Shown here in pieces: positions 1 to 62,793 of a stretch of DNA of 64,000 nt. A program made the position numbers and the translations under genes. The notes below the pieces were generated by a model. The model did not search any database. It saw only the letters and a list, made by a program, of their open reading frames with translations, and had not been told where the DNA came from. Source of the stretch: Octopus vulgaris (taxonomy: Eukaryota). The stretch is from the NCBI GenBank assembly GCA_951406725.2, contig OX597826.1:6262001-6326000 (forward strand), in the 5' to 3' direction. Every line of letters starts with the position of its first letter. Position 1 is the stretch's first letter.

Positions 1-568
1 GGGTTCTTGTAAAGACAAGGACATGGTATACAAAGGGAGAGATCTAGAAGCATTTTGGAGAGCCTACATGGCATTTGACACAATATGACGGCAAAAAGAG
101 TTCTCCATACTCTTTTCTATCAACAAGCCAATGACCAATATGGAGGCACACTAGGTCACCTTGACATCCACAATTTATCCAAGCACCCGAAGGACCCAAA
201 ACCCAGACAAATACAGGAGTACGTCTTCATGGAGGGAACATCTGTACTAAATACGAAATATACGTTGAAGGTAGTCACATTCCAATAACCTCACTATATA
301 TACACACAGGTAGAGTTGTTAGTAGGCTGTTATACAGAGAAATGTATATGTATATATGTATATGTGTATGTGTGTATGTGTGTGTGTAGGTAAATGAATA
401 TGTAAGTAAACAGATAAACAGATAGGTACATAGGTATTACGGACTGACGGCACACACAAATACATATGCACACATACAAAGACACACTCACACACAAACA
501 CATGAATATGCAGAATACATACATATGCAAACGTACACACGCATATATATATATATATATATATACAT

Positions 569-36409: not shown

Positions 36410-36964
<555 letters not shown>

Positions 36965-37919: not shown

Positions 37920-37998
<79 letters not shown>

Positions 37999-38041
37999 GT
38001 ATATATATATATCATATGTGTATACATATATATATATGTAT

Positions 38042-38500
38042 AAGGGTGAAAAGGAACACACGAGTTGATATATATGAAAAAACAAGTCAAAAATAGAAAA
38101 TGCTAAAATAATTTTATAGTGAACATTTCAGTACCGGTTTCGGTCATTTTGAGACCTTTTCAACTGTAACGATTAAATAATTAAATTTAGAAAAATTAGA
38201 AAAAAAGTTTTTTTGAAGGAATATTTCTATAGTAGTGTTCAGATTTAAGTGGCATTCTGCCTTTCTCTGACTCCCTTGTTTGCACTTGTGTGTTGGAGGT
38301 CGTTGTGAGTTCTTGGTAGGGTAGTAGAGGAAGAAGGCTGGTGAGGAAGGGGGTGGGAGAATCTGGGAGTGCCCTGATGGTCGTATTTTGAATGGTCAGT
38401 GGCGGCTGGCAGTCGCGCAGTTCAATTCAGGAGAATATTTATATTGACAGGCTTGTTTATAGAATTTGCGTAGGTGTTATACTAAAAAACATTAGTGACA
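38042..38500 (-). mobile_element. Penelope-like element 3' remnant
   Basis: Minus-strand HLRKFYKQACQYKYSPELN resembles the GIY-YIG C-terminal P.LN end; downstream UTR carries an HHR and ends at (TA)n. Confidence 0.6.
38129..38166 (-). ncRNA. Minimal type-I hammerhead, U3-A8 variant
   Basis: CAG-UUGAAAA-GGUC(UCAAAAU)GACC-GAAA-CCGG-UA-CUG; all three helices pair, helix III palindromic (ACCGGU). Confidence 0.75.
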
Positions 38501-38521
38501 AAGTTAAGGGGTAGGGGGTGG

Positions 38522-38722
38522 AGAAGTAGAAGAAGAAGAAGAAGAAGAAGAAGAAGAAGAAGAAGAAGAAGAAGATGACGATGTTGATGATGATGATGAA
38601 GAAGAAGAAGAAGAAGAAGGAGAAAGGAGAAGATGACGATGATGGTGATGGTGGTGATGATTATGACGACGATGATGATGATAATGATGATGATGAAGAA
38701 GAAGAGGAAGAAGAAGAAAAAA
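38522..38722. repeat. (GAA)n/(GAT)n compound microsatellite
   Basis: Direct reading. Confidence 0.9.
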
Positions 38723-38984
38723 CAGAGAAGGGAGAATATGAATGGGTTAAAGTAGTGAGGTGTTGTATGACTTGAAGTTGGTATGTTATGGATTATAGCT
38801 GTGATTTTAGCTGTGATTAGTAATGGATTCTTATATACATATATACGTATACCTATATATATACACATATATAGACCTAAATATACATATATACATATAC
38901 ACACATATATACATGTACATATATACAATAATGTACGTATATACGTGTGTATGTGTGTTTTGTGTGTGTTTGTGTGTGTTTGTG

Positions 38985-47158: not shown

Positions 47159-47221
<63 letters not shown>

Positions 47222-47355
47222 TCAATAAATGGTGAGGTTGTGTTGACCGCACGTGGAGAAATGATAACCAAGGAAAAATTGTAAAAATGCAGAATGCTCG
47301 ATTGAAAGAAAATTTTAATGAAATGAGAAAATGAAAAAATATATAAATATATATT

Positions 47356-47397
47356 TATTCAAACCGGTTTTCGTCATAGTTTGACTTATCAAGAATA
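47356..47397 (-). ncRNA. Minimal hammerhead, U3-A8 variant
   Basis: UAUUC-UUGAUAA-GUCA(AACUA)UGAC-GAAA-ACCGGU-UU-GAAUA. Confidence 0.7.
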
Positions 47398-47848
47398 GTT
47401 AGGTGAAAAGGTTTTTTAAAAATAAGAAAGGGGAAAAAAAGTTGCATTGTTTTTTGCAAAAGAATAATAATAAATATGTATACAAATTAAAAAATAAGTA
47501 CTCCGATAAATTGTGAGTTCGTTGTGTATCTTGAGTTTAATGATTGTTCACGAAAAAATTACCTTGAGGTATTAGGATCCAATGGGATTAAGGCCATGTG
47601 TTGTTTGGTTTAATTTAGGATGTTGGCAAAACAGGAAGTAGTAGTAATTGTGGTTCTTCAGTTCCTGTGTTGTGAATAAGGGGAGACAACTCATTTGGGA
47701 CAACGAACTCACAATGTATCGGAGTACTTTTTTTATTTTTATACATATTTATTTTTTAAATTTTTATACATATTTATTATTATTCTTTTGCAAAAAACAA
47801 TGCAACTTTTTTTCCCCTTTCTCATTTTTAAAAACCTTTTCACCTAAC

Positions 47849-47890
47849 TATTCTTGATAAGTCAAACTATGACGAAAACCAGTTTGAATA
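47849..47890 (+). ncRNA. Minimal hammerhead, U3-A8 variant (mirror copy)
   Basis: tattc-ttgataa-gtca(aacta)tgac-gaaa-accagt-tt-gaata. Confidence 0.65.
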
Positions 47891-48985
47891 AATATATATT
47901 TATATATTTTTTCATTTTCTCATTTCATTAAAATTTTCTTTCAATCGAGCATTCTGCATTTTTACAATTTTTCCTTGCTATATATATATATATATATATA
48001 TACGCATGTGTGTAAGTATGTATATATGTATGTATGTACGTATGAGTTTGTGTTTGTATGCATTTTGCTATATAGATGAAAATAAATGACTGTCCATGTG
48101 TGTTTGTATGTATATGAATCTGCGAAACATCTATAATACACACGCTAAATGCCTGCATATAGTGGGACATATATTTGTCCCCTAACACATATTTGAAACG
48201 CTACATTTATCCCATTTCCGTGAGCTGGCCATGACATATCTAACTGTAGAATTTCTGATGTGTGTAGCACCTCAGACAGAGGATCATATGTCCGAGCGAT
48301 CATATTTTTGCCGTTTATCGTATTTGAGCGATGATTCATAGATATACGAATTGCATTTGACCAAAAATAGTCTGTATATCTCATCCTCATATTGTGTCTG
48401 AAACCATATGAAAAACCCGGACATTGAAGGATTCTGGGATTTAGCATATCTATTGCATACGGTCCATTTCTCACACCATCCATGAGTCTGAATATATAGA
48501 CTGCTCTGAAGACACATTCTTTTTATAGAGGTTGAGATATCTCTATATAAGGATAGTTGGTAAATACGTGGGTTATGTGCTCCTTGGTTAGTTGGTTTCT
48601 CCAATCAAAATATCATTACAAAAATGTATAAATATAAGAAATGTTGGCTGAATGCAAATACTATAGTTGGTGGCAGACAATCATTCAAAGAATTCTAGAT
48701 ACAGAGTAGGAACAGAAATAAATCTCTATTTCTTTTGTTTGTTTCTCTTGAAAATTAGCGCCCAGAAATTTAATGAAATTTATTGTACAATGATTGTGTT
48801 TATGGTATCGTGCATTGTAGCGGAAGTATATTTCCAAAGTCTCTCGTCATATAAAGGGTAACACTTTAGGACCTTAACTTTCTGAGCTTTTATAATTGTA
48901 GAGCAAATTATGATTGTTAGGTATCTCAAGTCGTAAGTTGTGTATATTACATATTTATAAATTTAGTTTTTTTTTTTGCATTTTC

Positions 48986-49410
48986 AGATGCACAGATCTG
49001 TCGTGGCTGGGTGGTAAGAAGCTTGCTTTCCATCCACATGGTTACGGGTTCCGTTCCATTGCGTGGCACCTTGGACAAGTATTTTTTTTTACTATAGCCT
49101 CGGGCCAACCGAAGCCTTGCGAGTGGATTTGGTAGACGGAAACTGAAAGAAGCCCGTCGTATATAGGAATATATATCGATGTGTGGCTGTCTGGATGTCT
49201 CCCATCACTGCTAGACAACTAGTGTTTTTGTATCTATGTTCACGTAACATAGCGGTTCGGCCAAAGGACCGATATATTAGATATTACGCTTTAAAAGGAA
49301 GTAAGCCTTGGTGTCAATTTGTTTGATGAAATTTGACTAAAACCCTCCTAATCGGTGCCCCAGCATGGACGCAGCCAAATGAGTGAAAGAAGTAAATGAT
49401 AAAAGATAAA
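48986..49410 (+). mobile_element. SINE family D, full length, diverged
   Basis: Head 'gtggctgggtggtaagaagcttgc...tagacggaaactgaaagaagcccgtc' plus tail 'gcggttcggccaaag...cagcatggacgcagccaaatga'. Confidence 0.8.
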
Positions 49411-49419
49411 AGATATATC

Positions 49420-49731
49420 CACATTTGTATAAAACAATCCTGAAAGCTTAACGTCACGATTGTAGCCTGAAGACGCTTGATGTGCCGTATCGAAAGCTTG
49501 ACATGATTCGTGGCTTCGTTACCAGCCTGGTGCATAAGTTTGGTCAAATTGCTAGGGCAGATACCAAGCTTTGTCACCATTTTCTAAATAGCTCAGTGTA
49601 CTGCGCTTATTGACGTATCCTTGTTTTCTTTGTATCGTCCATCTGGAATATTTTGTTCCATTTTTCTATCATCTAACTCTCCAGAAGTTTTGCCTTCTTG
49701 TCCCATTTTGTATTATTTATATATATATATA

Positions 49732-49775
<44 letters not shown>

Positions 49776-50060
49776 GAAAACAAAGAAACAAGGAAAGAAA
49801 TACATACGAATGATCACGTCTATGTGTGGAAATGGCGAAAAACATGAGTTTCGCTCGGCAGAAACAATTTCAAAGAACTTTCCACAGACTTCTAGAGCCC
49901 TTATTGTCATGATGTTGCTCGCACATTTCTATTTCACTCTGCTTTGTGATAAACATCGAATCGATTGTGTCCCATCCTTTGTTGCATGATACTTATTTAC
50001 CCAGTATTTTGCCTATAACCATGGGTGGAAGGCATGAATTTAGAGATTGTGATGCTCTTA
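49420..50060 (-). pseudogene. Heavily decayed RTE-like reverse transcriptase fragment
   Basis: Minus-strand pieces VIGKILGK, KGWDTIDSMFITKQ..EMCEQH and KMVTKLGICPSNLTKLMHQ occur in the expected RT motif order. Confidence 0.5.
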
Positions 50061-51816
50061 GCCTGCATTCATCCTGTGACATGTGTATTCCTGGCTCTAC
50101 CCGTTGGTTACTTAGTGATGAAGCACAATTTTGCAAAATTAACAGTCCTCTGTCATGGCATCAGCTGGTTTGCTCTATTACCTAAGGATATACGGGTGTT
50201 ACCGTTTGATGATAGCTCTAATTACAGGCAAAATTGGTATCACATAAAGGAGATCGATATGACCTGTTCATAACAACCTTTTCTACTCCTGGGTACTGGT
50301 TTATTTTGGTATACGATCTGTTCAGTTGACTTTCCGTCTCACTCCATTATAAGTGGTAGAGATTTTAACAGAGAGTGTCGTCTGATTACTCCACTATTTT
50401 GCATATCTAAGATATTATTTGCTGCGTAATAAATCTTCTTTTCCTCATGAGTTTCTGCTAGTATTTGCTTTTCATGACATTTGTGATCATTGATATTTCA
50501 GATAGCAGAAAAAAATTTCCTTCATGACATCGACTTATTCGAAAAGAGACGAAGTGGAGAAAATTATTTACTAATCTTAATCAACAATACAACTGAAAAG
50601 GCGAAGTAAATTGACATTCAGGAATAATGAAGAACTAAAGAACATGCGGAAGAGCATCTATAACCTGTGTCTGGACTTTAACCTAAAGAACCAGAAAAAT
50701 CTTTGCCAACATACTTGAAGATTTCTCCATAATACTTCGAGAGAAAGGAGAAAATGCCACAGAGAAACATTCAATGGTGAAAAGAAAAGTTGAGCTTAAC
50801 CATTTTCAATAGAGAGAAGTACGAAAAACTACATACAAAGAGAATAAATTGCAAAGTTGTTAAATATAAATGAAGAAACTTTTGAGCCTATAGCAATTTC
50901 TAAGAAATTATGAATTTTAGAAAACAGGAAAGAATATTTTCACATTATTAGCCCCCATATTTAAACATATTTTACACAAAACTTACAGAGATATAAGAAA
51001 TGACAAACAGGTATGAAAAACAAAGAATACTGATAAGGAACTGTCAATAAATTCGAGCGTCTTATACAAGAAAACATTAGCCACGCCAAAATAAAAAAAA
51101 TCTCAACTACTCAACATATATTATGCCACCGTTTCAGCAGTATGGCGATTCTAAAAGAGAATGGGAAGGGAAGAAACACAAGGTATAAATTATAAGCATA
51201 TATATCAACCTGAAATACAGGTAGTATTTTACTTAACACGACTTTTGTAATATATTATAACTGTTATTACAAACGTGTTCTACGATGAAGCGTTACTAAT
51301 AAAGACATCTCTAGCGCACTGCTTTCAATGTCAGTGTAAATGAAGTGGAAAGATTTTTAGCGATTTTTGTTTTGTATTTAATATTGTCGTTTGGAATTAT
51401 GTGTAAAATAAACATGGCACTTTGTAATTCATTATGCAAAAACATTTACTTAGGTTTCGGCGTATACTTTTCACATATGATTTAATTTTACGAATATTTA
51501 AAACTTTCGCATCTTTCACACTGCCTATCTGTTTCCATCAATCTCTGTCTCTCTCTGCCTGTTTCCATGTCTCTCTGTCTATCTCCTACTCTCTCTGTTT
51601 CTGTCTCCCTCTCTCTCTTTCTCAATAGTTACACATACTCACACACACACACACATATATATATATATAAATATATAAATATAGAGAGGTAGATACTTAG
51701 ATAGATAGTTAGATAGATACACAGATAGATGGATGGATAGATAGACATGTATATCTATCCAGCTATCATTATACGCATTGTATAATGTACGTATGCAAAC
51801 AGGCATATATATATAG

Positions 51817-51864
<48 letters not shown>

Positions 51865-51891
51865 TTGTATGTGTGTGCGTGTGTATATATG

Positions 51892-51940
<49 letters not shown>

Positions 51941-52303
51941 AGGACTTTATGTATGTAGGTTTGACAGGTATGTATATATGCATGTATTTATGTATGTATG
52001 ATTGTGTATCTCTACGTGTAAATGTATGTACGTAACCATCATGATACAAGCAGATACCTAAGTACGTGTACATGTGCTCATTAAAAGACAGAAACAATTG
52101 AAATATTATCTCTCAATTATAGATCTTGAGCAAACACAATATATTTAGATGTCACTTCTCATGTCAGAAAATTGCGAAATATCGAACACAAAGAATATAT
52201 GTTATGCATGTATGTATATTTTCATACATACATGCATACATACATACATATATTATATGCATATTTTTCTTTATATATATATATATACATATATATGTGT
52301 GTT

Positions 52304-52365
<62 letters not shown>

Positions 52366-52393
52366 GATATTTATATATATATATACATATATA

Positions 52394-52443
<50 letters not shown>

Positions 52444-53631
52444 TATATATATATGTATATATATTAAAATGTATGTGTGCATATATGAATGTATTGTTAT
52501 AAAACATTCTCCAAATTGAAATTATACGCAATGACATCGGCAAACACACTAAGAGAATTATATAATGCCGTTACTCTTTTCTTTATAAAATATGTATTCA
52601 AATATTCTGAAATTTGGTATTAAATTTTGACATTAATGTACATCCTTTCATCTTGAACAGCATTGCTAATATCTATCTAAATGTGTACAGACTTAAAGCT
52701 GCCACGCATAAATTGAAGTACACCATACATACATTCGCACTCGCACATACATATAAACACACAGACACACACACACGCTGACACACACTCAGACACAATG
52801 TCAGACACACTCACTCATATAAGCACACAAACACACACAAGCACGCATATATATTATATATGCGTGTTTGCCTGTGTATGTATATTTGTATATGCATTTA
52901 TATATGTATTGGAAACATACACAGACTTAATTTCGCACAAACATACATATTCATTCATACATAACGTACGTTCGAATCTTCTTAATTCGACTTTTATAGA
53001 CGAACACTGTAATACGATTATAATAATAATCTGGAATTCTCTTTATTTTCCGAAATGTCAAATTAACGTTTCATTATTTTCAAATATATGTCACAATAGA
53101 AACATTTCGCTGACTATAAATTTAAGTCCATCTTAATAAATTTCGTATAAGCATTGTAACCAGACAATTTACTCGTTGTAAACGTTACTTCATTTTGCAT
53201 CAGTCTTGTAGCTATTAAGCAACGTATTACAACATTATTAAATGAAAAGTTTAAAGCTTGTTTCCTGTTTTATCGACCACAAATTATTTATCGCATATAG
53301 TTATCAGAAATACATAAGTGAAAGCAGTGTAATATTTGATACAAGTTGAAAGTATACTCTTGAAATTACGTATATTAGATTATTAACATTTACATGAATG
53401 TACATCACAGCATGAATATATATGGGGTAAATAATATACAACTAACGATTGGAACTAACAGAATGCAAGCAGACGGGTAACGTATACAATGGAGATTTAA
53501 TGCAAAAGTATATAAACGATCTTTTTAAATTATTTACTATTCGTTTGTTTATTTACTACACATATTTTGGTGGAAGTATATACATAGGTATGTCACATTT
53601 TCCGTTACATGTCATTTTATTTAATCCTGAA

Positions 53632-53673
<42 letters not shown>

Positions 53674-53678
<5 letters not shown>

Positions 53679-53982
53679 AAATAAGAAAATGGAGGAATAT
53701 ATTCCTTACAATCATCAGCTAACAGATAATACCAATTCATATACTTTATTAACTAATTAAATAATTAAATAGGAACATAAAAATAATACCATAAAAATAA
53801 TATATGTACTATTTTTATGGTATTATCTTACTTATTGATGTATATTGTTTTATTCTGTTTTGCTCTGTTGGATTTAGATGTTCCTATTTAATTATTTAAT
53901 TAGATAATAAATTATATGAATTGGTATTATCTGTAAGTTGATGATTGTACGGAATCTATTCCTCCATTTTCTTATTTTGTAT
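53674..53982. repeat. Fold-back inverted repeat (~105-bp arms) with inner hairpin, next to (TA)n
   Basis: 'atacaaaataagaaaatggaggaat...aataggaacat' mirrored by 'atgttcctatt...attcctccattttcttattttgtat'. Confidence 0.85.
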
Positions 53983-54186
53983 TATGAATTTGAGGTAAAA
54001 CATTTACCTTCGCCCATCTAATACAATAAATGAACTAATTGCATTGCAATTGTAAGCATTTATGTATTAGCCTTTTGGGTACTTCACTGGCAGTATATTG
54101 GATAAATGATATCCCATAGTGGGTTACACTCATAACCCCTATCTCACTTTGTACTTTTGTATATATATATATATATATATATATAT

Positions 54187-54456
54187 GGGACCCCCTTCGG
54201 TCACGAGCTGACCATGGGATTGCACCAAGAAAGTTACCCTCCCAGGCACAAGTCCGGGCAAGGTTATTTATGGAAGACCAGCAGTCACCCATGCATACCG
54301 GACTCCCCTCTCCACGCCACCATTGTTATCCAAGGGAAAGGCAGTAGCCGATACAGCAAGGCACCCGTGACGTCACAACTCATTTCTACCAGCGTAGTGA
54401 ACTGGAGTAATGTGAAATAAAGTGTCTTGCTCAAGAACACAACACGCATCCCGGTC
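54187..54456 (-). mobile_element. SINE family A
   Basis: Reverse complement of ~610-880. Confidence 0.85.
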
Positions 54457-54459
54457 AAT

Positions 54460-54680
54460 TAAAAAAACACAGTGAAAAAGGAAAACGGAAAAGAACATGT
54501 CGACCTAGAACAACAAAGTATTAATAGGACACAGAAAGAAGGAAAAGAGAAGTAATTTTATGTTTCGAGCATTACTCTTCTTCGGAAACAGGAAAAACAG
54601 GAGTTCAAGACAAAGGAGAAAAACAATCGCCAACAATAAGAGGTAGCTACATTTTTGACGTGACTGGAAGTAGAAAAATT
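54460..54680 (-). mobile_element. Penelope-like pLTR fragment with decayed HHR at 54556-54588
   Basis: Reverse complement UUU-CCGAAGA-A-GAGU(AAU)GCUC-GAAA-CA-UA-AAA; similar to 37275-37500. Confidence 0.55.
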
Positions 54681-54756
54681 AAAAGAATGTGCATTCTGGA
54701 ACAGGAAAGGGCGAATATGGTCAGAATATATATATATTTATAAGTGTGTATGTGTA

Positions 54757-54925
54757 ACGAGGGGTTGGGAGCAGTACCTCGCTTTGGGTAAAAGAATATA
54801 TTATTCAATGTATTCCCCTCTCAATCCCTCAAATTTTCTAACATTTGTAAACCCCGGACGGCTGAGACTCCATCCAGTTATTTTCAATATACTCTTAAAG
54901 CCGGGAACTTTTCAGCACCCTTCGT
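54757..54925. mobile_element. Mariner-derived MITE
   Basis: Diverged ~29-bp TIRs: acgaggggttgggagcagtacctcgcttt versus rc acgaagggtgctgaaaagttcccggcttt. Confidence 0.5.
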
Positions 54926-54949
54926 GTGTCTGTATATATATTCTGTTAT

Positions 54950-55195
54950 TTGTTGCAGTCATCAAGCGAGGGTGGAAGGACAAACACAAACACACAAACA
55001 TAGATATATATTTATACATATATATATATCTACGACATGATTCTTTCAGTTTCCATCAACCAAATCCACTCACTAGGTTTGATCAGCTCAAGGCTATGGT
55101 AAAATACATTTGCCCGAGATGCCACGCACAGGGACTGGACCCGGAACCATATGGTTGGTAAGCAAGCAACTTACCACACAACCACTTCTACAACT
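54950..55195 (-). mobile_element. SINE family D fragment
   Basis: 'tttcagtttccatcaaccaaatccactcac...gggactggacccggaaccat...cttaccacacaaccac'. Confidence 0.75.
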
Positions 55196-55317
55196 ATATA
55201 TATATATATAAAATATATATATTTATATATATGTTTGTGTATGTGTGTATGTGTGTGTGTTTGTGTGTGTGTGTGTCCGTGTGTGTATAAGTATATATGT
55301 GTATATGTGTGTATATA

Positions 55318-55379
<62 letters not shown>

Positions 55380-56305
55380 TACATATATATGTGTATGTAT
55401 ATATATATATATGCATACAATCGTCCTGTCATATAGCTTGCTATACCATGTGGGCAGAGCCTAGGGATTGCAGAAAAGCACTAGACCTGTTATAAAATAC
55501 TAACTTTTTTTCATCGCATGAAACTATTAGTAGCTCATGAAAAGTACATACTCTGTTTGATAAATAATTATATCTATACATAATATCAGAGAGAAAAGCG
55601 GATTAATAGTCCAGGTGAAATAGTGCATTTATGAAGCTCAACGTAAATTAAGATACCAGGCTAACCAATACGTCCTGTTACAGATGATCCGACTGCAGTT
55701 AATCCGAATTCAACCGGCGGACACTAGACAGATTTGTAAATTCACCTGATGGTTAACAACAGTGATACAGGAAGCACGGACAATGGATTTTAATCATTTA
55801 TTAAGGATATACATATATTTCCGATAAACATTAGAGTGGTCTAGTTCCATATTTAACCGTATTAATCAATCGATCGCGAGTCGATCGGCAGAAAAAAGGA
55901 GAGCTGACAATTTTCAATGCCTTCATCACAGTCACAAAAATCTAATAACCAAAAGACAACACATTGATCCAAACGGTGGTATTTGAAAAACTAAGTCATT
56001 GTATTAGGCATTTTTTTCTGACCAGTACTACACAGGCAAGAGGAAAAGCGAGCTGTAATAATAGAAAATTGTGAGTCTGATCATGAAAAGAAGTGATATC
56101 TGCTATCTTCGTACATTGTGCGGGGTTGTTGCAGAGAAAGGGGGACAGTGTATTGAAAGTTAATATTAGTTCAGGCAAGGATCATATGCTATGACAAGAA
56201 AGCATTGGCAGATTGAAGACGGCTGAATAATTTAAACAGAAAGAACTATTCACAATTTAGTATATTTTAAATCTATCAGCTTCCAGTAAATGAAACAGAT
56301 AAGAA

Positions 56306-56505
56306 CATTGGTTTCAAATTTTGGCACTTTGGAAGTGCATAGTCGACTATATCCACTCCGGTGCCCAACTGGTACTATCGACCCTGGAGACTGATTTAAG
56401 GCAAAGTCGACCTCTAGAGAATTTAAACTAAGATCATGAAGACGGACGAAATGCTGTTAAGCACTATATCGGGTGAGCTAACTATTCTGCTAAATCACCT
56501 CCTCA
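56306..56505 (-). mobile_element. Diverged SINE family C
   Basis: 'caactggtactatcgacc...aaggcaaagtcgacct...gacggacgaaatgc'. Confidence 0.7.
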
Positions 56506-56561
56506 ATACAGATATGAATATTGATAATCAGAATTCACGAAGAAGTCATAATGTATATATA

Positions 56562-57260
56562 TGAGGAGAGTTTACAAAAAACAAAAAAGACGAAGACAGG
56601 TGGTGTACAAAACAAACAGATGTATTAGCATAACGATCAGGAATATAAAATGTCTTTTACGTTTCGAGCCTACGCTTTTCTACAGAAAGGGACACAGAAA
56701 TAAATGAGGAGAGAAACAGGGAGAGTAAAAAAATTGTATGTAGTGGCTAACGATCTGTCATGGCGATAATCAATATATATATTATATATATATATAATGA
56801 AATATAGTATGGGAACAGGAGGAAAACTAAAGTGGTGCTACGTAAAAAGTGGATAAGGAATATAAATACAATGAATAAAGAATAATCCGGAAAACGGGGG
56901 GAATTTAACGTGAAGTTCTCGTATATATAAGTAGAAAGGAAGAATAGAGAAGACCACTGGAATTCTGAGTCAATCAATATATTAATTTCTCAAGTTATTC
57001 TTTTTAAGAGAATGATTCACTTCTCTTGTTCAAAATATTACACTCTGACGTAAGGGGAATATTGACTGCTTCATGCATTTCGTATTGCTACTTTGTGCTC
57101 CCATATAAGAAAGTTATTAAGTCCATCCTTCCAACTTCAATAATTGCCTTCAAATTCAATAATCATCTCCCTAGCTTCTAATATTTATATCAATTTCGTT
57201 CCTAGATAAGAGAGCGGTTTTCATCCAAAATACCTTATTTTGTAAATATTAGTATAAAGT
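56562..57260 (-). mobile_element. Penelope-like element 3' remnant (possibly Naiad-like)
   Basis: Minus-strand YEMHEAVNIPLTSECNILNKRSE (~57016-57085) resembles the LLNKRSE end of PLE GIY-YIG domains; HHR-bearing pLTR downstream. Confidence 0.5.
56654..56689 (-). ncRNA. Minimal hammerhead-like motif, A6U core
   Basis: CUUU-CUGUAGA-A-AAGC(GUAG)GCUC-GAAA-CG-UA-AAAG. Confidence 0.55.
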
Positions 57261-57405
57261 TTCGCTAGTGGTTAGAAATATCTATATAGATGAATTTATT
57301 GTTTTTTTTTAATTCTTAACAGCAGTAACCCATTCTAAATCCCTAAGGGAATTTGACTATAGATTCAATATAATTATTTGATTATGTATAGGTAAATATC
57401 TCTCT

Positions 57406-57683
57406 GTGGAGGCACATGGCCGAGTGGTTAGAGAAGCGAAATCGCGGTCGAGGGATCGAGGCTTCGAATCTCAGACCGGACGGTGTTTGCATTTATGAGC
57501 GAAACACCTAAGCTCCTCGCGGCTCCGGCAGAAGGTAATAGCGAAACTTCTGCTGACACATCGCCACAGCTTTCTCTCGCTCTTTTCTACTGCATCTTGC
57601 AGCTCATCTGCGATGGACCGGCGTCCCGTTCAGGTGGGAAACCGGCCCTTGTGAGCCAGGCATGGCTCGAGAAGGAACAAACA
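57406..57683 (+). mobile_element. SINE family B-related copy with 12-bp TSD
   Basis: A box 'tggccgagtggtt', B box 'ggcttcgaatctc'; 'aaatatctctct' at 57394-57405 and 57684-57695. Confidence 0.85.
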
Positions 57684-58379
57684 AAATATCTCTCTATACT
57701 TTATGTACTTTCTCTCATTAAGTTAGACCCACATTGAGGGACTGGTTATAAAGTTCAACTTCTGATATTTCTAGTAAATTTGGGATGATACAACAAGAAG
57801 AAAGATAAAAGCCGTAAATTCTAATCTCGACGCATTTCGACCTTCAACCCACATCTTACGGGCGTCGAGAGGAAATGTGAAGCATCGTTAAGAACATCGA
57901 ATTCCAGGAATGTAATCTGTGAAGAAATGCGCATTTAAGAAAACTGTACTTCTTATCTATGGAACTTAGGAAGAAAGTGGGAATTATTTTATTTGTTGAC
58001 ATGACTGGAATTATCTGCAATTTGGATTATAATACTTATAAGAACCGTTTCAACAAGGAAATACTGAGAGACTTGAGGATGACCTCTAAGAATACCTTAT
58101 TTAGTATTAATAAAATTGGGAAGAATAGTAAGTAAACTCGATTTGAAAACACAGAGCAGAATCTAATACCCTCAGTGAACTCAGAAATATACCCAGGTAT
58201 CTTTGTAGCATAGAAGGGACATAACTAGTCCAAATACATAAACTTTGCCATGTAGAAAAGTCTACGTGTCAAGATAATTTTCATATAAAAAACTCCCTAA
58301 ATCATCGCAGCATCACGTTCATATTTCCGCGTATGTTACGTTTCTCAGTTAACGGTGGATTTCACATATATGAAGTTGT

Positions 58380-58600
58380 CTTTACTCTTTTACTCTTTTA
58401 CTTGTTTCATTCATTTGACTGTGGCCATGATGGAGCACCTCCTATAGCCGAGCAAATCGACCCCACAACTTATTGTTTGTTAGCCTAGTAAATTTTTCTA
58501 TCGGTCTCTTTTGCAGAACTGCTAATTAACGGGGACGTAAACACACCAGCGTCGGTTGTCAAGCGCTGTTGAGGGGACAAACACAGACACACACACATAC
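58380..58600 (-). mobile_element. SINE family D 3' module with (TTTTACTC)n tail
   Basis: 'tttactcttttactcttttacttgtttc...ggggacgtaaacacaccagc'. Confidence 0.8.
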
Positions 58601-59892
58601 ACACACACACACACATCTCAATTTATTTCTCTGTGTTTAGTATCACTTTCCATCTCAATTTATTACTCTTTGTTTAGTTTCACTTTCCATTCGCATTTAT
58701 ATATTCCTATAGATTTACTTTTCCAAAATACCAAGTTTTATAATGTAATATACAGAGCTGATATAATTACGTTTTCATGAAAATGACACTAATATAAAAT
58801 TTATAATTAAATAATTCTAAATGTGTATTTGTTGGTTATTGTTATTGTTCATAAATCAATATTTCTAATATTGTTCATTTCCATATGTGACTTTTCCTTC
58901 ATGTATATGAGTATAATTCTGGTAATATATAATTTACCAAACTATAATTCGAGACAATCCAATTCAAATTTTCATGACGTAGACTGGTCATCATTACATA
59001 TTGTGCAACTCCTTCCATTTGATGTGAAATGACTACAAATTAATACCTGGTTTATAAAAAACATAGATATGTATATATATATATATATATATATTTGTAT
59101 ATATATATATATATATATATATATGTTTGTGTGTGTATGCATATGCATATGTGTATATATATATATATATATATCCACACAAACAAAGACACAGGTATAT
59201 GATTTTTTTTTACTTCATCAGTTATTTATCGTATCTCCGTATTTTTTCTTTGTGTTCACAATAAAAGCTCTCCTCACAGTATAAACATTCCAATGCCCAC
59301 TGAATGATGTAATAATAGTCACAAACTTCTTACTTGTATTTCTGGCAAGATCTTTTGATATGCTCTTCATCGTTCATATACAAGTCTTTTTTTGTGAAAA
59401 CAGTATAACTGTTCTATATGGCATAACTGTTCTTAAAATGTCGTTAAAGTTAACAGACACCCTTATGAAGCCTGTTACTGGCAATCCAGACATTTATACA
59501 GGCAAAAAGCAGGCGTCAAACAGGATATTTCGTCCTATTAAAATATACTTTAAAATTGATGCTGATGATGTTGTAAAAAAGAAAATGACTAGTATAGTCT
59601 TTAGTATATTAGTAGATGTAGATGACGTAGTTTATGAATTCTAACGCTACTTATTCATTTACGTTCTTTCCACGTGATCAAAGTGCTTTAGTTAGCAAAT
59701 TGTAAACCCGCCCACGGCACATGAATTGTAAAACGTATTACATCAACTTAGGATTTTTTTTGCACCGTGCATTACTGCTTCCTATTTACGTCAAAGTACT
59801 GACACCAAACGCACCTAATGTAACAGTAACGAATAACCAATAACTTTGTTTAGATTACACACTCACACGTACATACACACACACACACATAA

Positions 59893-59929
<37 letters not shown>

Positions 59930-60187
59930 ACAATATAGGATAAGAACGCAAAACATCCGGAGTGTTAGGTGATACAAACATGAGACAAAAAACATCCAGA
60001 TAGACAATACAAAGAAAACAAGGAGGGAAGGTGGGTCATTCGAAGTTTTCTGTCCTCAATCAAGTACCAGATTATCTTCGCAATTACGGTTGAATCATCC
60101 ATCTTGATGTTTTCCTGTCCCGATTTTGTATTTTATATATATATATACACATAGATAGCGGCGTACGTACACTTACCTCTATCTTTT

Positions 60188-60238
<51 letters not shown>

Positions 60239-60266
60239 CTATATCTACTCGTATGCCACCTACACT

Positions 60267-60314
<48 letters not shown>

Positions 60315-60458
60315 TAGATCAATAAATGTGTGGGGTATGTGTTGACCGCACGTGGAGAAATGATAAGCAAGTAGGAAAAATTGTTAAAAATGCAGAATGC
60401 TCGATTGAAAGAAAATTTTAATGTAATGAGAAATTGATAAAATATATAAATATATATT

Positions 60459-60499
60459 TATTCAACCGGTTTTCGTCATTGTATGACTTGTCAAGAATA
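60459..60499 (-). ncRNA. Minimal hammerhead, U3-A8 variant
   Basis: UAUUC-UUGACAA-GUCAU(ACA)AUGAC-GAAA-ACCGGU-U-GAAUA; one nt shorter at the cleavage site than the 47-kb copies. Confidence 0.6.
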
Positions 60500-61026
60500 T
60501 TTATGTTTTAAAAAGTTTTTTTAAAAATTAGAAAGGGAAAAAAAGAAAATTGCATTGTTTTTTGCAAAAGAATAATAGTAAAAATGTACAAGAATTAAAA
60601 AATAAGTTCTCCGATACATTGTGAGTTCGTTGTGTATCTTGAGCTTAATGATTGTTCACGAAAAAATTACCTTGAGGTATTAGGATCCAATGGGATTAAG
60701 AGCATGTGTTGTTTGGTTTAATTGAGGATGTTGGCGAAACAGGAAGTAGTAGTAATTGTGGTTCTTCAGTTCCTGTGTTGTGAATAAGGGGAGACTACTC
60801 TTTTGAGTTCTTCAATAAAGGCTGTTGGTAAAACCCAAATTATAAAATTATCATTTTAGCTTCATTTGCGTTATCTTTTTTATATAATTGCTTGTTAACT
60901 TAACTTTCAGATTTTAACACTTTATTTATATTATTTTCTAATTATATAAATCTGCATAGACAATTGCATTTCAAATTGTCATATCATTTATAATAAAAAT
61001 GATAACAACAATAGTAAAAATGATAT

Positions 61027-61446
61027 TTAAAGAATATAAGTTTTAGCTTGAAGTGATGAATGCATGGTATCCTTGTATATTTGTGTTAGTCCATCCATTA
61101 AGAATGAGGTAGAAAAAGGAAGTTTGATCAACGAGGAGTTTGCATATTCAATAAAGAGATTCTCCTTGTTAATTCTCTCCTGTGTGGTGATCCCGTCTTT
61201 ACATTGGTAGAAGGGGAATATATAGAATTTGGGGTTTAAGTCTTTAGCACATGAGTCTATGTGGTCACTCAGTGGAATTTGTCGGTATTCCGGGAGATTT
61301 ATTTGTTCTTTATGCACCGCTACTCGTTTGCGTAACGGGAGACTCGTTTGTCCAACATAATTATGTTGGCAACCAGCGCATGTGAGAACGTAGATAAGGT
61401 TCTCGGAGGAACAGGAGAAGTTAGTCTTGATTTTAAACTTCATAAC
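61027..61446 (-). pseudogene. PLE GIY-YIG endonuclease domain (truncated ORF)
   Basis: NFSCSSENLIYVLTCAGCQHNYVGQTSLPLRKRVAVH...PLSDH...ERINKENLFI: LIY/YVG, CCHH, conserved R and E. Confidence 0.88.
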
Positions 61447-61539
61447 TTCTTGTACATTTTTACTATTATTCTTTTGCAAAAAACAATGCATTTTTCTTTT
61501 TTCCCCTTTCTAATTTAAAAAAAAAAATTTAAACCTAAA

Positions 61540-61580
61540 TATTCTTGACAAGTCATACAATGACGAAAACCGGTTGAATA
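61540..61580 (+). ncRNA. Minimal hammerhead, U3-A8 variant (mirror copy)
   Basis: tattc-ttgacaa-gtcat(aca)atgac-gaaa-accggt-t-gaata. Confidence 0.6.
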
Positions 61581-61721
61581 AATATATATTTATATATTTT
61601 ATCAATTTCTCATTTCATTAAAATTTTCTTTCGTTTGAGCATCCTGCATTTTTTAAAATTTTTCCTTGCTTATCATTTCTCCACGTGCGGTCAACACAAC
61701 CCCACCATTTATTGATCTGTA

Positions 61722-62164
61722 CCCTCGACACCAGCGCTAGAAGAAATACGACAACCAACTTTGGTTAGAAGACGAAATGTGTTCTTCCACCACTGTATAA
61801 TGCTCGACCATATACAGCGAGGATGATATTCCAAAAGCTAGAGAAGTTTGTATGGGAAATTATGACCCTCCCAACATATTCGCCGCACATAGCTCCATCT
61901 GATTATCATTTAATTCGCAGTCTTTAAATCGTTTTGACGGAAAAATTATGAATTCTGTAGACGAGGTCAGAACAGTACTGTAGGAGTACTTTTCGTCGCG
62001 GACAAATGAGCTTTGGAAGAGGGGCCTTCAAAAACCACCAGATACATGGAAGAGCATTCTAGAAAATGAAGGAATATACATTTTAGACTAAAAAAGAATT
62101 TGTTTATCTTAATTTTGAAAAGTGGAAGGAGTATTAAACCAAAACGCATTATTTGCGGGATGAC

Positions 62165-62706: not shown

Positions 62707-62743
62707 ATATATATATATCAATGTATCTGTATCTATCTATCTA

Positions 62744-62793
<50 letters not shown>

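Follow-up and report, generated by a model that had tools for sequence, protein, structure and literature searches.

U3-A8 hammerhead sequences in a young Penelope-like element of Octopus vulgaris, and a one-nucleotide deletion at the predicted cleavage site in its youngest and most numerous branch

What do four hammerhead-like motifs with a U3-A8 core, scattered between 47 and 62 kb of a 64,000-nucleotide stretch of Octopus vulgaris DNA (the window), tell us about the ribozymes of Penelope-like elements (PLEs), and why do two of them lack a nucleotide at the cleavage site? The motifs lie at the coordinates and have the sequence that the original prediction gave for them: 47356-47397 and 60459-60499 on the minus strand, and 47849-47890 and 61540-61580 on the plus strand. 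An exact motif pattern matched the window 4 times, compared to a mean of 0.00 in 100 shuffles; an Rfam scan of the window at the gathering threshold gave no match. All four (4/4) combine the core UUGAnAA with GAAA, which fits the YUGANRA / GAAA form with a paired 3-8 position that defines type I minimal hammerheads. Helix I has 5 bp, helix II has 4 bp closed by G10.1-C11.1, and helix III is a palindrome, AACCGGUU in three motifs and mutated to AACCAGUU in the motif at 47849. We therefore class all four as type I minimal hammerhead sequences with a U3-A8 pair, situated in the pseudo-LTR (pLTR) of a young PLE; their palindromic helix III predicts that they would cut only as dimers. The unpaired H17 between helices III and I is present as U17 in the 47-kb pair (cleavage site UUU). 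In the 60/61-kb pair one U is missing, and a fold comparison restores an unpaired H17 there only if the register shifts and GAAA takes up an extra A.

Although four motifs are indeed present, they are not four independent copies, because their arrangement as two inverted pairs implies two insertion events. The main arm of insertion 1 (47220..47697, minus strand) comprises the distal 3' UTR and pLTR of a Neptune-type family, subfamily A, and finishes at the long end, which includes an optional tail of ~47 nt and abuts (TA)n. Its hammerhead has U7, loop II AACUA, an 8-nt palindromic helix III, and U17. The partner is an inverted, 5'-truncated pLTR arm (47700..47979, plus strand) with the short, tailless end, likewise abutting (TA)n; its hammerhead differs by a G-to-A change in helix III that is absent from the main arm and that is predicted to abolish the self-dimer helix III. 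The main arm of insertion 2 (60317..61451, minus strand) contains the C-terminal, GIY-YIG part of the ORF, the full 3' UTR, and the pLTR, and its long end adjoins (TA)n. The 3' fragment of the RT-endonuclease ORF, with the endonuclease end and stop codon, occupies 61128..61451 on the minus strand, and the hammerhead has C7, loop II UACAA, and the shortened cleavage site. An identical U-deleted hammerhead sits in the inverted pLTR arm (61447..61729, plus strand), which overshoots the long end by ~10 nt and enters the junction with the element's 5' UTR. Judged from the alignment of copies, the main arm of insertion 2 (L088) appears to be an early member of the U-deleted lineage, with a UTR that is still mostly of intermediate type; an A/B recombinant origin was considered and dropped in favor of this early branch. 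A repeat finder run on the whole window returned mostly microsatellites.

That the motifs are PLE pLTR hammerheads, as first proposed, is borne out by the element itself. Its 4.6-kb unit has a sense ORF between direct pLTR repeats spaced by 4,614 nt, and the hammerhead lies inside the pLTR in the sense of the ORF (L011 and L012). The ORF encodes a YLDD reverse transcriptase (RT; Pfam RVT_1, E 4e-7) and, at its C terminus, a GIY-YIG domain whose match, at E 0.0016, is below the curated Pfam cut-off. It also carries DKG (EADKG), a CX4CxxC linker (CARSNCGTC), and an endonuclease CCHH composed of two Cys that lie between the GIY and YIG positions and, downstream, a pair of His. A search returned 563 homologues at E<=1e-30 out of 7,995 scored. 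Partial pLTR tandems, an inverted 5'-truncated arm, and the optional tail, all of them features of PLEs with a C-terminal endonuclease, are present. By its protein motifs alone, the element would be classed as Neptune-type under the criteria set out in PMC8557442, with Nematis as the alternative; our RT trees were built without named PLE references. A non-LTR retrozyme (tandem non-coding monomers, each 170-400 nt long and bearing a single hammerhead) is ruled out by the size and coding content of the unit. The genome holds ~760 copies of the motif (759 pattern matches, versus 0 for reversed-pattern controls). The ORF is interrupted in all 24 near-full-length copies examined, many of the breaks falling at homopolymer runs, and the longest open run from the first ATG is 554 aa of ~1,255.

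The cleavage site had been called atypical in both its UUU and its shortened form. This holds for the shortened form but not for UUU, which in the 47-kb pair is an ordinary NUH-type site; U17 is also common in outgroup PLE hammerheads. The U-deleted form accounts for 74 of the first 100 copies in the motif match list (counted by eye) and for all 22 of the near-full-length copies that show a motif (24 examined). Divergence from the group consensus is 1.53, 1.44, and 0.98% in the U17 groups and 0.75 and 0.30% in the U-deleted groups, and U17 is also present in L369, a copy of greater age (91% identical) that agrees with the U17 group at 43 of the 50 sites diagnostic for the groups. Because of this lower divergence and the U17 of L369, the deleted form is derived and youngest in subfamilies rooted on L369 (rooting on distant proteins was uninformative). 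The U-deleted branch is the family's youngest and most numerous. Subfamilies A and B1 differ by 9 amino acids, and 51 of 52 U-deleted arms fall in C7/UACA groups, with L152 as the single exception.

These copies also reveal where the motif varies. The proposal that N7 and loop II are free is upheld: lineage-shared variants occur at 4 of 6 N7/loop positions and at 71 of 635 flank positions, compared with 0 of 35 core/helix positions, one raw match having been excluded from the latter as an alignment artefact of the extra U. The core and helices thus differ from N7/loop (Fisher p 1.5e-4) and from the flank (p 0.018, or 0.09 with the artefact counted). The comparison of substitution rates in motif and flank that the original prediction called for gave a divided answer: private changes are alike (0.52% versus 0.62%), as expected for dead copies, and core constraint appears only between source lineages. 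After the loss of the U, no core variants (0/35) accompany 29 of 635 in the flank (p 0.20, not significant), so this measure does not separate a slowed but active ribozyme from a dead one.

The reading that we prefer, at a probability of roughly 0.6, is that these are dimer-cutting U3-A8 pLTR hammerheads of a young PLE, that the U3-A8 pair came from an ancestor in common with the 38.1-kb family, that loss of the U in the youngest lineage slows the ribozyme, and that the template for insertion spans the cleavage site. The deletion likely slows self-cutting without stopping the spread of the element. The U-deleted motif would have to shift its register to fold actively, with an extra A in GAAA, a 6-bp ACCGGU helix, and U17; so shifted, it would cut the same bond as the ancestral form, more slowly. 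An insertion in GAAA (U13a) is reported in natural hammerheads (PMC3088659), the inserted base there being U, not A.

The most serious competitor holds that the U-deleted hammerhead is catalytically dead, with an 8-bp helix III stacked on helix I and no N17, that the ribozyme is dispensable or even a brake, and that the non-cleaving lineage kept its read-through templates and out-amplified the others. We consider this unlikely, if far from negligible. The unshifted register has no nucleotide 17, and secondary-structure energies (the only energies considered) make the zipped dimer the lowest of three registers evaluated for the U-deleted form, at -16.9 versus -14.3 and -10.1 kcal/mol. The third register requires G17, which is described as strongly impairing minimal hammerheads (PMC3884650). 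The predominance of the U-deleted form among listed copies, youngest groups, and near-full-length copies would follow naturally from such a lineage. Hammerhead mutants of a Poseidon element are reported to insert normally in vitro (PMC11167929), so cleavage is unnecessary there, and PMC8557442 suggests that hammerheads may simply parasitize PLEs. Yet the U17 form sits in the same trap, its active fold lying 2.6 kcal/mol above the zipped fold exactly as in the U-deleted form (secondary-structure energies only), and the U-deleted lineage has no shared core/helix change where 4.6% of flank positions vary, albeit not significantly. Moreover, the success of one lineage is one event, and the amino-acid differences between A and B1 hitch-hike with the deletion. 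The stronger claim, that a PLE lineage inactivated its hammerhead through the cleavage-site deletion and then became the youngest, most numerous, and near-sole full-length source, the hammerhead being a brake rather than a step, strikes us as doubtful.

Copy boundaries bear on the final element of the slowed-ribozyme reading, the spanning template. In a sample biased to arms that include the hammerhead or the flank upstream of it, 3' ends cluster at two distances from the cut site, +96..102 and +145..147; 107 of 118 non-junction 3' ends abut (TA)n, and none of 135 arms starts within 2 nt of the cut site. Among copies with the 5' UTR junction, 16 of 22 continue upstream past the cut site, and it is the starting point of none. 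We propose that an RNP nicks (TA)n and that reverse transcription may begin downstream of the hammerhead, at a distance of ~100 or 146 nt, on a template, either read-through or re-ligated circular RNA, that would span the cut site; the products would be 5'-truncated copies with an inverted second arm.

The origin of the U3-A8 pair is the other part of the question. The family had been described as unrelated to the one at 38.1 kb (F2), whose 3' UTR/pLTR occupies 37996..38832 on the minus strand and whose own U3-A8 hammerhead (38130-38166, minus strand) has a 6-nt palindrome and A17. The flanks are indeed dissimilar, sharing only microsatellites and nucleotide matches of 11-22 nt, but the proteins contradict the description: F2 is 57% identical over 726 aa and belongs to the same RT clade. 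Identity to F4 is 59-62% and to F8 51%, and five ORF-linked U3-A8 families form one clade with support 99/97, with the ORF-to-hammerhead link resting on a single locus each for F4 and F11 (separation 1.4 kb in F11). Among outgroup loci whose hammerhead was scored, the four closest to this clade (L249, L251, L255, and L256) are C3-G8. The second tree has 24 rows, down from 64 after removal of L073 and 39 other, mostly distant rows; L073, taken as the F4 ORF in the first tree, was rejected as a neighboring element. Since the two families share one RT clade, one inherited origin of U3-A8 is implied rather than two, and the 47/60-kb family likely inherited the pair from an ancestor common with the 38.1-kb family. 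The proteins nearest to the clade (P0001-P0010 and P0014) come without DNA context, so the origin may predate the radiation in this genome.

The suggestion that U3-A8 is normal in several PLE lineages here is supported by these five families and by ~12,800 net pattern matches versus ~4,400 for C3-G8, a ratio of ~3:1 within the two helix-III classes counted. Attempts to link further families to ORFs failed. Family X (U3-A8, AAUU helix III) gave one distant PLE match in 19 loci of 3 kb, and extending the search to 14 longer loci revealed no PLE match belonging to the family itself. In family Y (C3-G8), a Poseidon-like fragment adjoins one diverged copy, and a similar fragment upstream of the C3-G8 family F9 (L056-L058) was left unassigned, with a tRNA-like head and a microsatellite intervening.

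It is improbable that the 47/60-kb and 38.1-kb families acquired U3-A8 independently, by recurrent change from C-G through U.G to U-A in an AT-rich genome. The pair does flip among ~360-nt retrozyme-like repeats, whose U-A forms are 85.6% identical to C-G forms and 85% identical to U.G forms; U3-A8 also turns up in other samples, at three distant PLE loci (L270, L298, and L306), and the two pLTRs have no alignable sequence. However, all five ORF-linked families of the clade are U3-A8 and none is C3-G8, making one origin parsimonious, and recurrence accounts for the genome-wide excess rather than for these two families. Least credible of all is that the loss of the U reflects a homopolymer error in the assembly, or that the motif arose by chance or has decayed and is free of selection: the homopolymer indels that interrupt every near-full-length ORF examined and the like private mutation rates are compatible with this, but the deletion tracks subfamily-diagnostic substitutions, the reversed-pattern controls are empty, and variation between lineages is restricted to N7 and loop II.

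These findings bear on whether PLE hammerheads are needed for transposition: their function is called unclear in PMC8557442, and cleavage was unnecessary in vitro by the account in PMC11167929. This family offers a matched natural pair, an ancestral U17 motif and a derived one-nucleotide deletion in the lineage that later became dominant; if the hammerhead were a brake, that pair would amount to a natural experiment on its role in Penelope retrotransposition. A search descriptor that insists on CUGANGA would overlook the majority of the type I hammerheads counted here. As a feature of PLE hammerheads, U3-A8 is already published (PMC4209133), and the new point is the cleavage-site deletion. A shallow check of the literature on cleavage-site deletion, octopus, and Neptune found no PLE hammerhead without N17, although figures S2 and S3 of PMC4209133 or Lunse et al. 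2017 may show such variants.

Set beside known systems, as far as the cited reports describe them, the element resembles the Neptune clade (Craig et al. 2021, PMC8557442) in its RT with a C-terminal CCHH-bearing GIY-YIG domain, CX2-5CxxC linker, pLTR hammerhead, inverted 5'-truncated arm, optional tail, and insertion in microsatellites, differing in a tail of ~47 nt rather than 30-40 nt. Its 3' ends fall at two positions downstream of the hammerhead, no ends lie at the cleavage site, and its targets are AT-rich, as in PAc, a Poseidon element of Anolis (Frangieh et al. 2024, PMC11167929); the PAc hammerhead is C3-G8 and overlaps the start codon, whereas the motif here ends ~170 nt before the first ATG. 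Natural core variants with U3-A8 covariation are described as active in vitro, and an insertion in GAAA as accommodated, by Perreault et al. 2011 (PMC3088659), but unlike U13a, the inserted A here could form a pair with U17 that closes the site. A close parallel in hammerhead design is provided by the Cercyon PLEs of S. mansoni (Cervera & de la Pena 2014, PMC4209133), which share type I motifs in pLTRs, U3-A8 covariation, a short helix I, and a helix III whose palindrome implies dimers; there too, inverted pairs are separated by 100-700 bp and most copies are truncated. In Cercyon, U3-A8 is the smaller set (~1,300 versus ~2,000 C3-G8), whereas it prevails here in the counted classes and is fixed in a five-family clade. 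The octopus motif further differs in its 4-bp helix II, its lack of an extra nucleotide after A9, its 8-nt helix III, and a dominant subfamily that is one nucleotide short at the cut site.

A structure-aware scan of the window recovered the four U3-A8 minimal hammerheads exactly where the original prediction had placed them, at 47356–47397 (−), 47849–47890 (+), 60459–60499 (−), and 61540–61580 (+); the pattern had no match in 100 shuffles. Because two of the motifs lie on the minus strand, the four form two inverted pairs, each comprising a main arm and an inverted, 5′-truncated arm, and (TA)n is present at three of the four outer ends of the two insertions. The genome containing the window is a 2.8-Gb animal genome. 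Hammerhead positions follow the conventional numbering, and the NUH rule is taken as background. The prediction listed U3-A8 motifs alone, whereas the window contains both kinds: at 36640–36679 (+), inside a short inverted-repeat remnant, lies a C3-G8 hammerhead from another abundant family (Y) in which A9 has become C. The A9C form is also present twice in L184. A short piece at 62711–62789, lacking the hammerhead, derives from the pLTR end of the 38.1-kb family.

Under the criteria in PMC8557442, the element carrying the four motifs is a Neptune-type PLE, with Nematis as a possible alternative. The family motif had 759 exact matches genome-wide (0 with the reversed pattern) and a flank query returned 810 candidates, so the motif is apparently retained in most copies. 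In 98 arms extending at least about 85 nt beyond the predicted cut, 3′ ends cluster at +96 to +102 (44 arms) and +145 to +147 (51 arms), the two clusters marking an optional tail of ~47 nt; (TA)n adjoins 107 of 118 nonjunction ends. The ORF is broken in all 24 near-full-length copies inspected, and its consensus differs between subfamily A (U17, as in the 47-kb pair) and the U-deleted subfamily B1 by 13 synonymous and 9 nonsynonymous codons. Near-identical full-length copies (L011, L012, and L361 to L388) vary chiefly by homopolymer-run indels in a Pro/Thr/His-rich linker, which may reflect RT slippage or assembly error, and most of them share one ORF break.

Variants common to at least three loci (98 arms) fell at 71 of 635 flank positions and 4 of 6 N7/loop II positions but at none of 35 core and helix positions (core/helix versus flank, p 0.018, or 0.09 with one raw core match included; the single raw core/helix variant is a product of projecting the extra U). 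Most of the 98 arms were picked by motif, and 30 loci picked by flank give an identical consensus. Rare substitutions in those 30 loci were alike in motif (0.52%) and UTR (0.62%), as would be expected if they represent neutral decay after insertion. Following the U deletion, the core is without change and 29 of 635 flank sites have new shared variants, a nonsignificant difference (p 0.20).

One U is missing at the predicted cleavage site in 74 of the first 100 copies listed, counted by eye. Divergence from group consensus is 1.53, 1.44, and 0.98% in the U17 groups and 0.75 and 0.30% in the U-deleted groups; an older copy (L369) has U17 and carries the base typical of the U17 group at 43 of the 50 diagnostic sites. 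This order, together with U17 in the older copy, indicates that the deletion is the derived state. When all 31 candidates of an ORF-start search, down to 81% identity, were scored, the deletion was found in 22 of 22 near-full-length copies showing the motif and in two more copies, L369 being the sole U17 carrier. For the deleted form as a dimer, predicted energies were compared in three registers: a helix III of 8 bp that leaves no N17 (−16.9 kcal/mol); a 6-bp helix with U17 and an extra A in GAAA (−14.3 kcal/mol), insertions in GAAA having a natural precedent in PMC3088659; and G17 with a bulge (−10.1 kcal/mol), G17 being described in PMC3884650 as impairing minimal hammerheads. In the ancestral form, too, a fold with A14-U17 zipped is predicted to be more stable than the active one by 2.6 kcal/mol. 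A single U-deleted arm at L137 (G000:C1:40516360) is short of one A as well, which yields a canonical GAAA together with U17 and a 6-nt palindrome; the arm paired with it does not share this second loss. In a C3-G8 family (F9; L050 to L061 and L232), helix I follows a 4-nt helix III so closely in most listed copies that N17 does not fit, and L232 has three extra nucleotides and a complete site. This family is possibly a second instance of cleavage-site loss, although its search pattern favored the short form.

Among 22 copies with a pLTR-to-ORF junction, 16 extend upstream over the predicted cut site (by 46 to >1,300 nt), 6 begin 9 to 118 nt downstream of it, and none starts at it; likewise, none of 135 distinct arms, a biased sample, starts within 2 nt of it. 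Hammerhead-cut linear RNA is therefore not the visible template, in agreement with the normal insertion of hammerhead mutants described in PMC11167929. Uncut read-through RNA and a religated circle would each be compatible.

The claim that the family is unrelated to the 38.1-kb family did not survive: their proteins are 57% identical over 726 aa, and their layouts are alike. Two further U3-A8 families have proteins 59 to 62% and 51% identical to the family's, and a fifth, 46 to 57%. The five form one group, along with two proteins without DNA context, in a 24-row tree (support 99/97), and again in a 64-row quick tree (98 SH-aLRT). In 91 related loci from other samples, sense C3-G8 hammerheads occurred in 22, clear U3-A8 in 3, and weak U3-A8 in 2 (reversed controls, 2 matches). 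The four nearest loci with a scored hammerhead have C3-G8, and all three loci with a clear U3-A8 motif sit in distant branches, so U3-A8 recurs across PLEs. Most simply, the window's two U3-A8 families would share a single origin. PLE-bearing, apparently animal contigs within bacterial MAGs (L328 to L338) are likely host contamination. Helices II of 1 to 2 bp and helices I of 7 to 9 bp occur in one U3-A8 family of this genome (F4; L028, L070, and L072) and, outside it, in relatives with C3-G8 found in other samples (L249 and L256). Near an F4 copy, L070 3229–4143 holds a 305-aa ORF that, judged by motifs, we take to resemble a Tc1/mariner transposase.

The 3-8 pair is labile in the genome's retrozyme-like repeats, with C-G, U·G, and U-A pairs among units ~85% identical (~340- to 360-nt repeats at L223 to L227, L037, L045, and L064), which suggests that the change from C-G to U-A may pass through a U·G wobble. 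The U3·G8 retrozyme-like form is a separate family, with 7 copies among the first 100 wobble/unpaired-pattern matches listed.

U3-A8 had also been proposed as the normal state in several PLE lineages. With helix III AC-NN-GU, the genome has 6,580 U3-A8 matches (reversed control, 315) and 1,613 C3-G8 matches (211); with other helix III starts, 7,731 (1,941) and 3,429 (414). Net totals including the family are ~12,800 versus ~4,400, or 2.9:1, and unpaired or wobble combinations net ~2,400, including one entire U3·G8 family. The patterns covered the core and helix III, with helices I and II unconstrained, left out 4-nt ACGU hammerheads (e.g., L210 and L245), and used a reversed control without CpG matching; many matches are retrozyme-like repeats or families without a detected ORF. 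Given these limits, the proposal holds as a majority among the counted classes and no further. In family X (L158 to L177 and L228 to L241), helix III is a 4-nt AAUU; its U3-A8 minimal hammerheads number in the thousands and often form very short inverted pairs, and no ORF was linked to it.

The U3-A8 core pair is already in the literature: PMC4209133 and PMC3088659 describe, respectively, ~1,300 U3-A8 matches in Schistosoma mansoni PLEs and natural U3-A8 covariation. Overall, the motifs are genuine and belong to an established class, and their core variant, itself already described, was most simply inherited within a single clade. The novelty, as far as the literature searched shows, is a dominant young lineage without one nucleotide at the predicted cleavage site.
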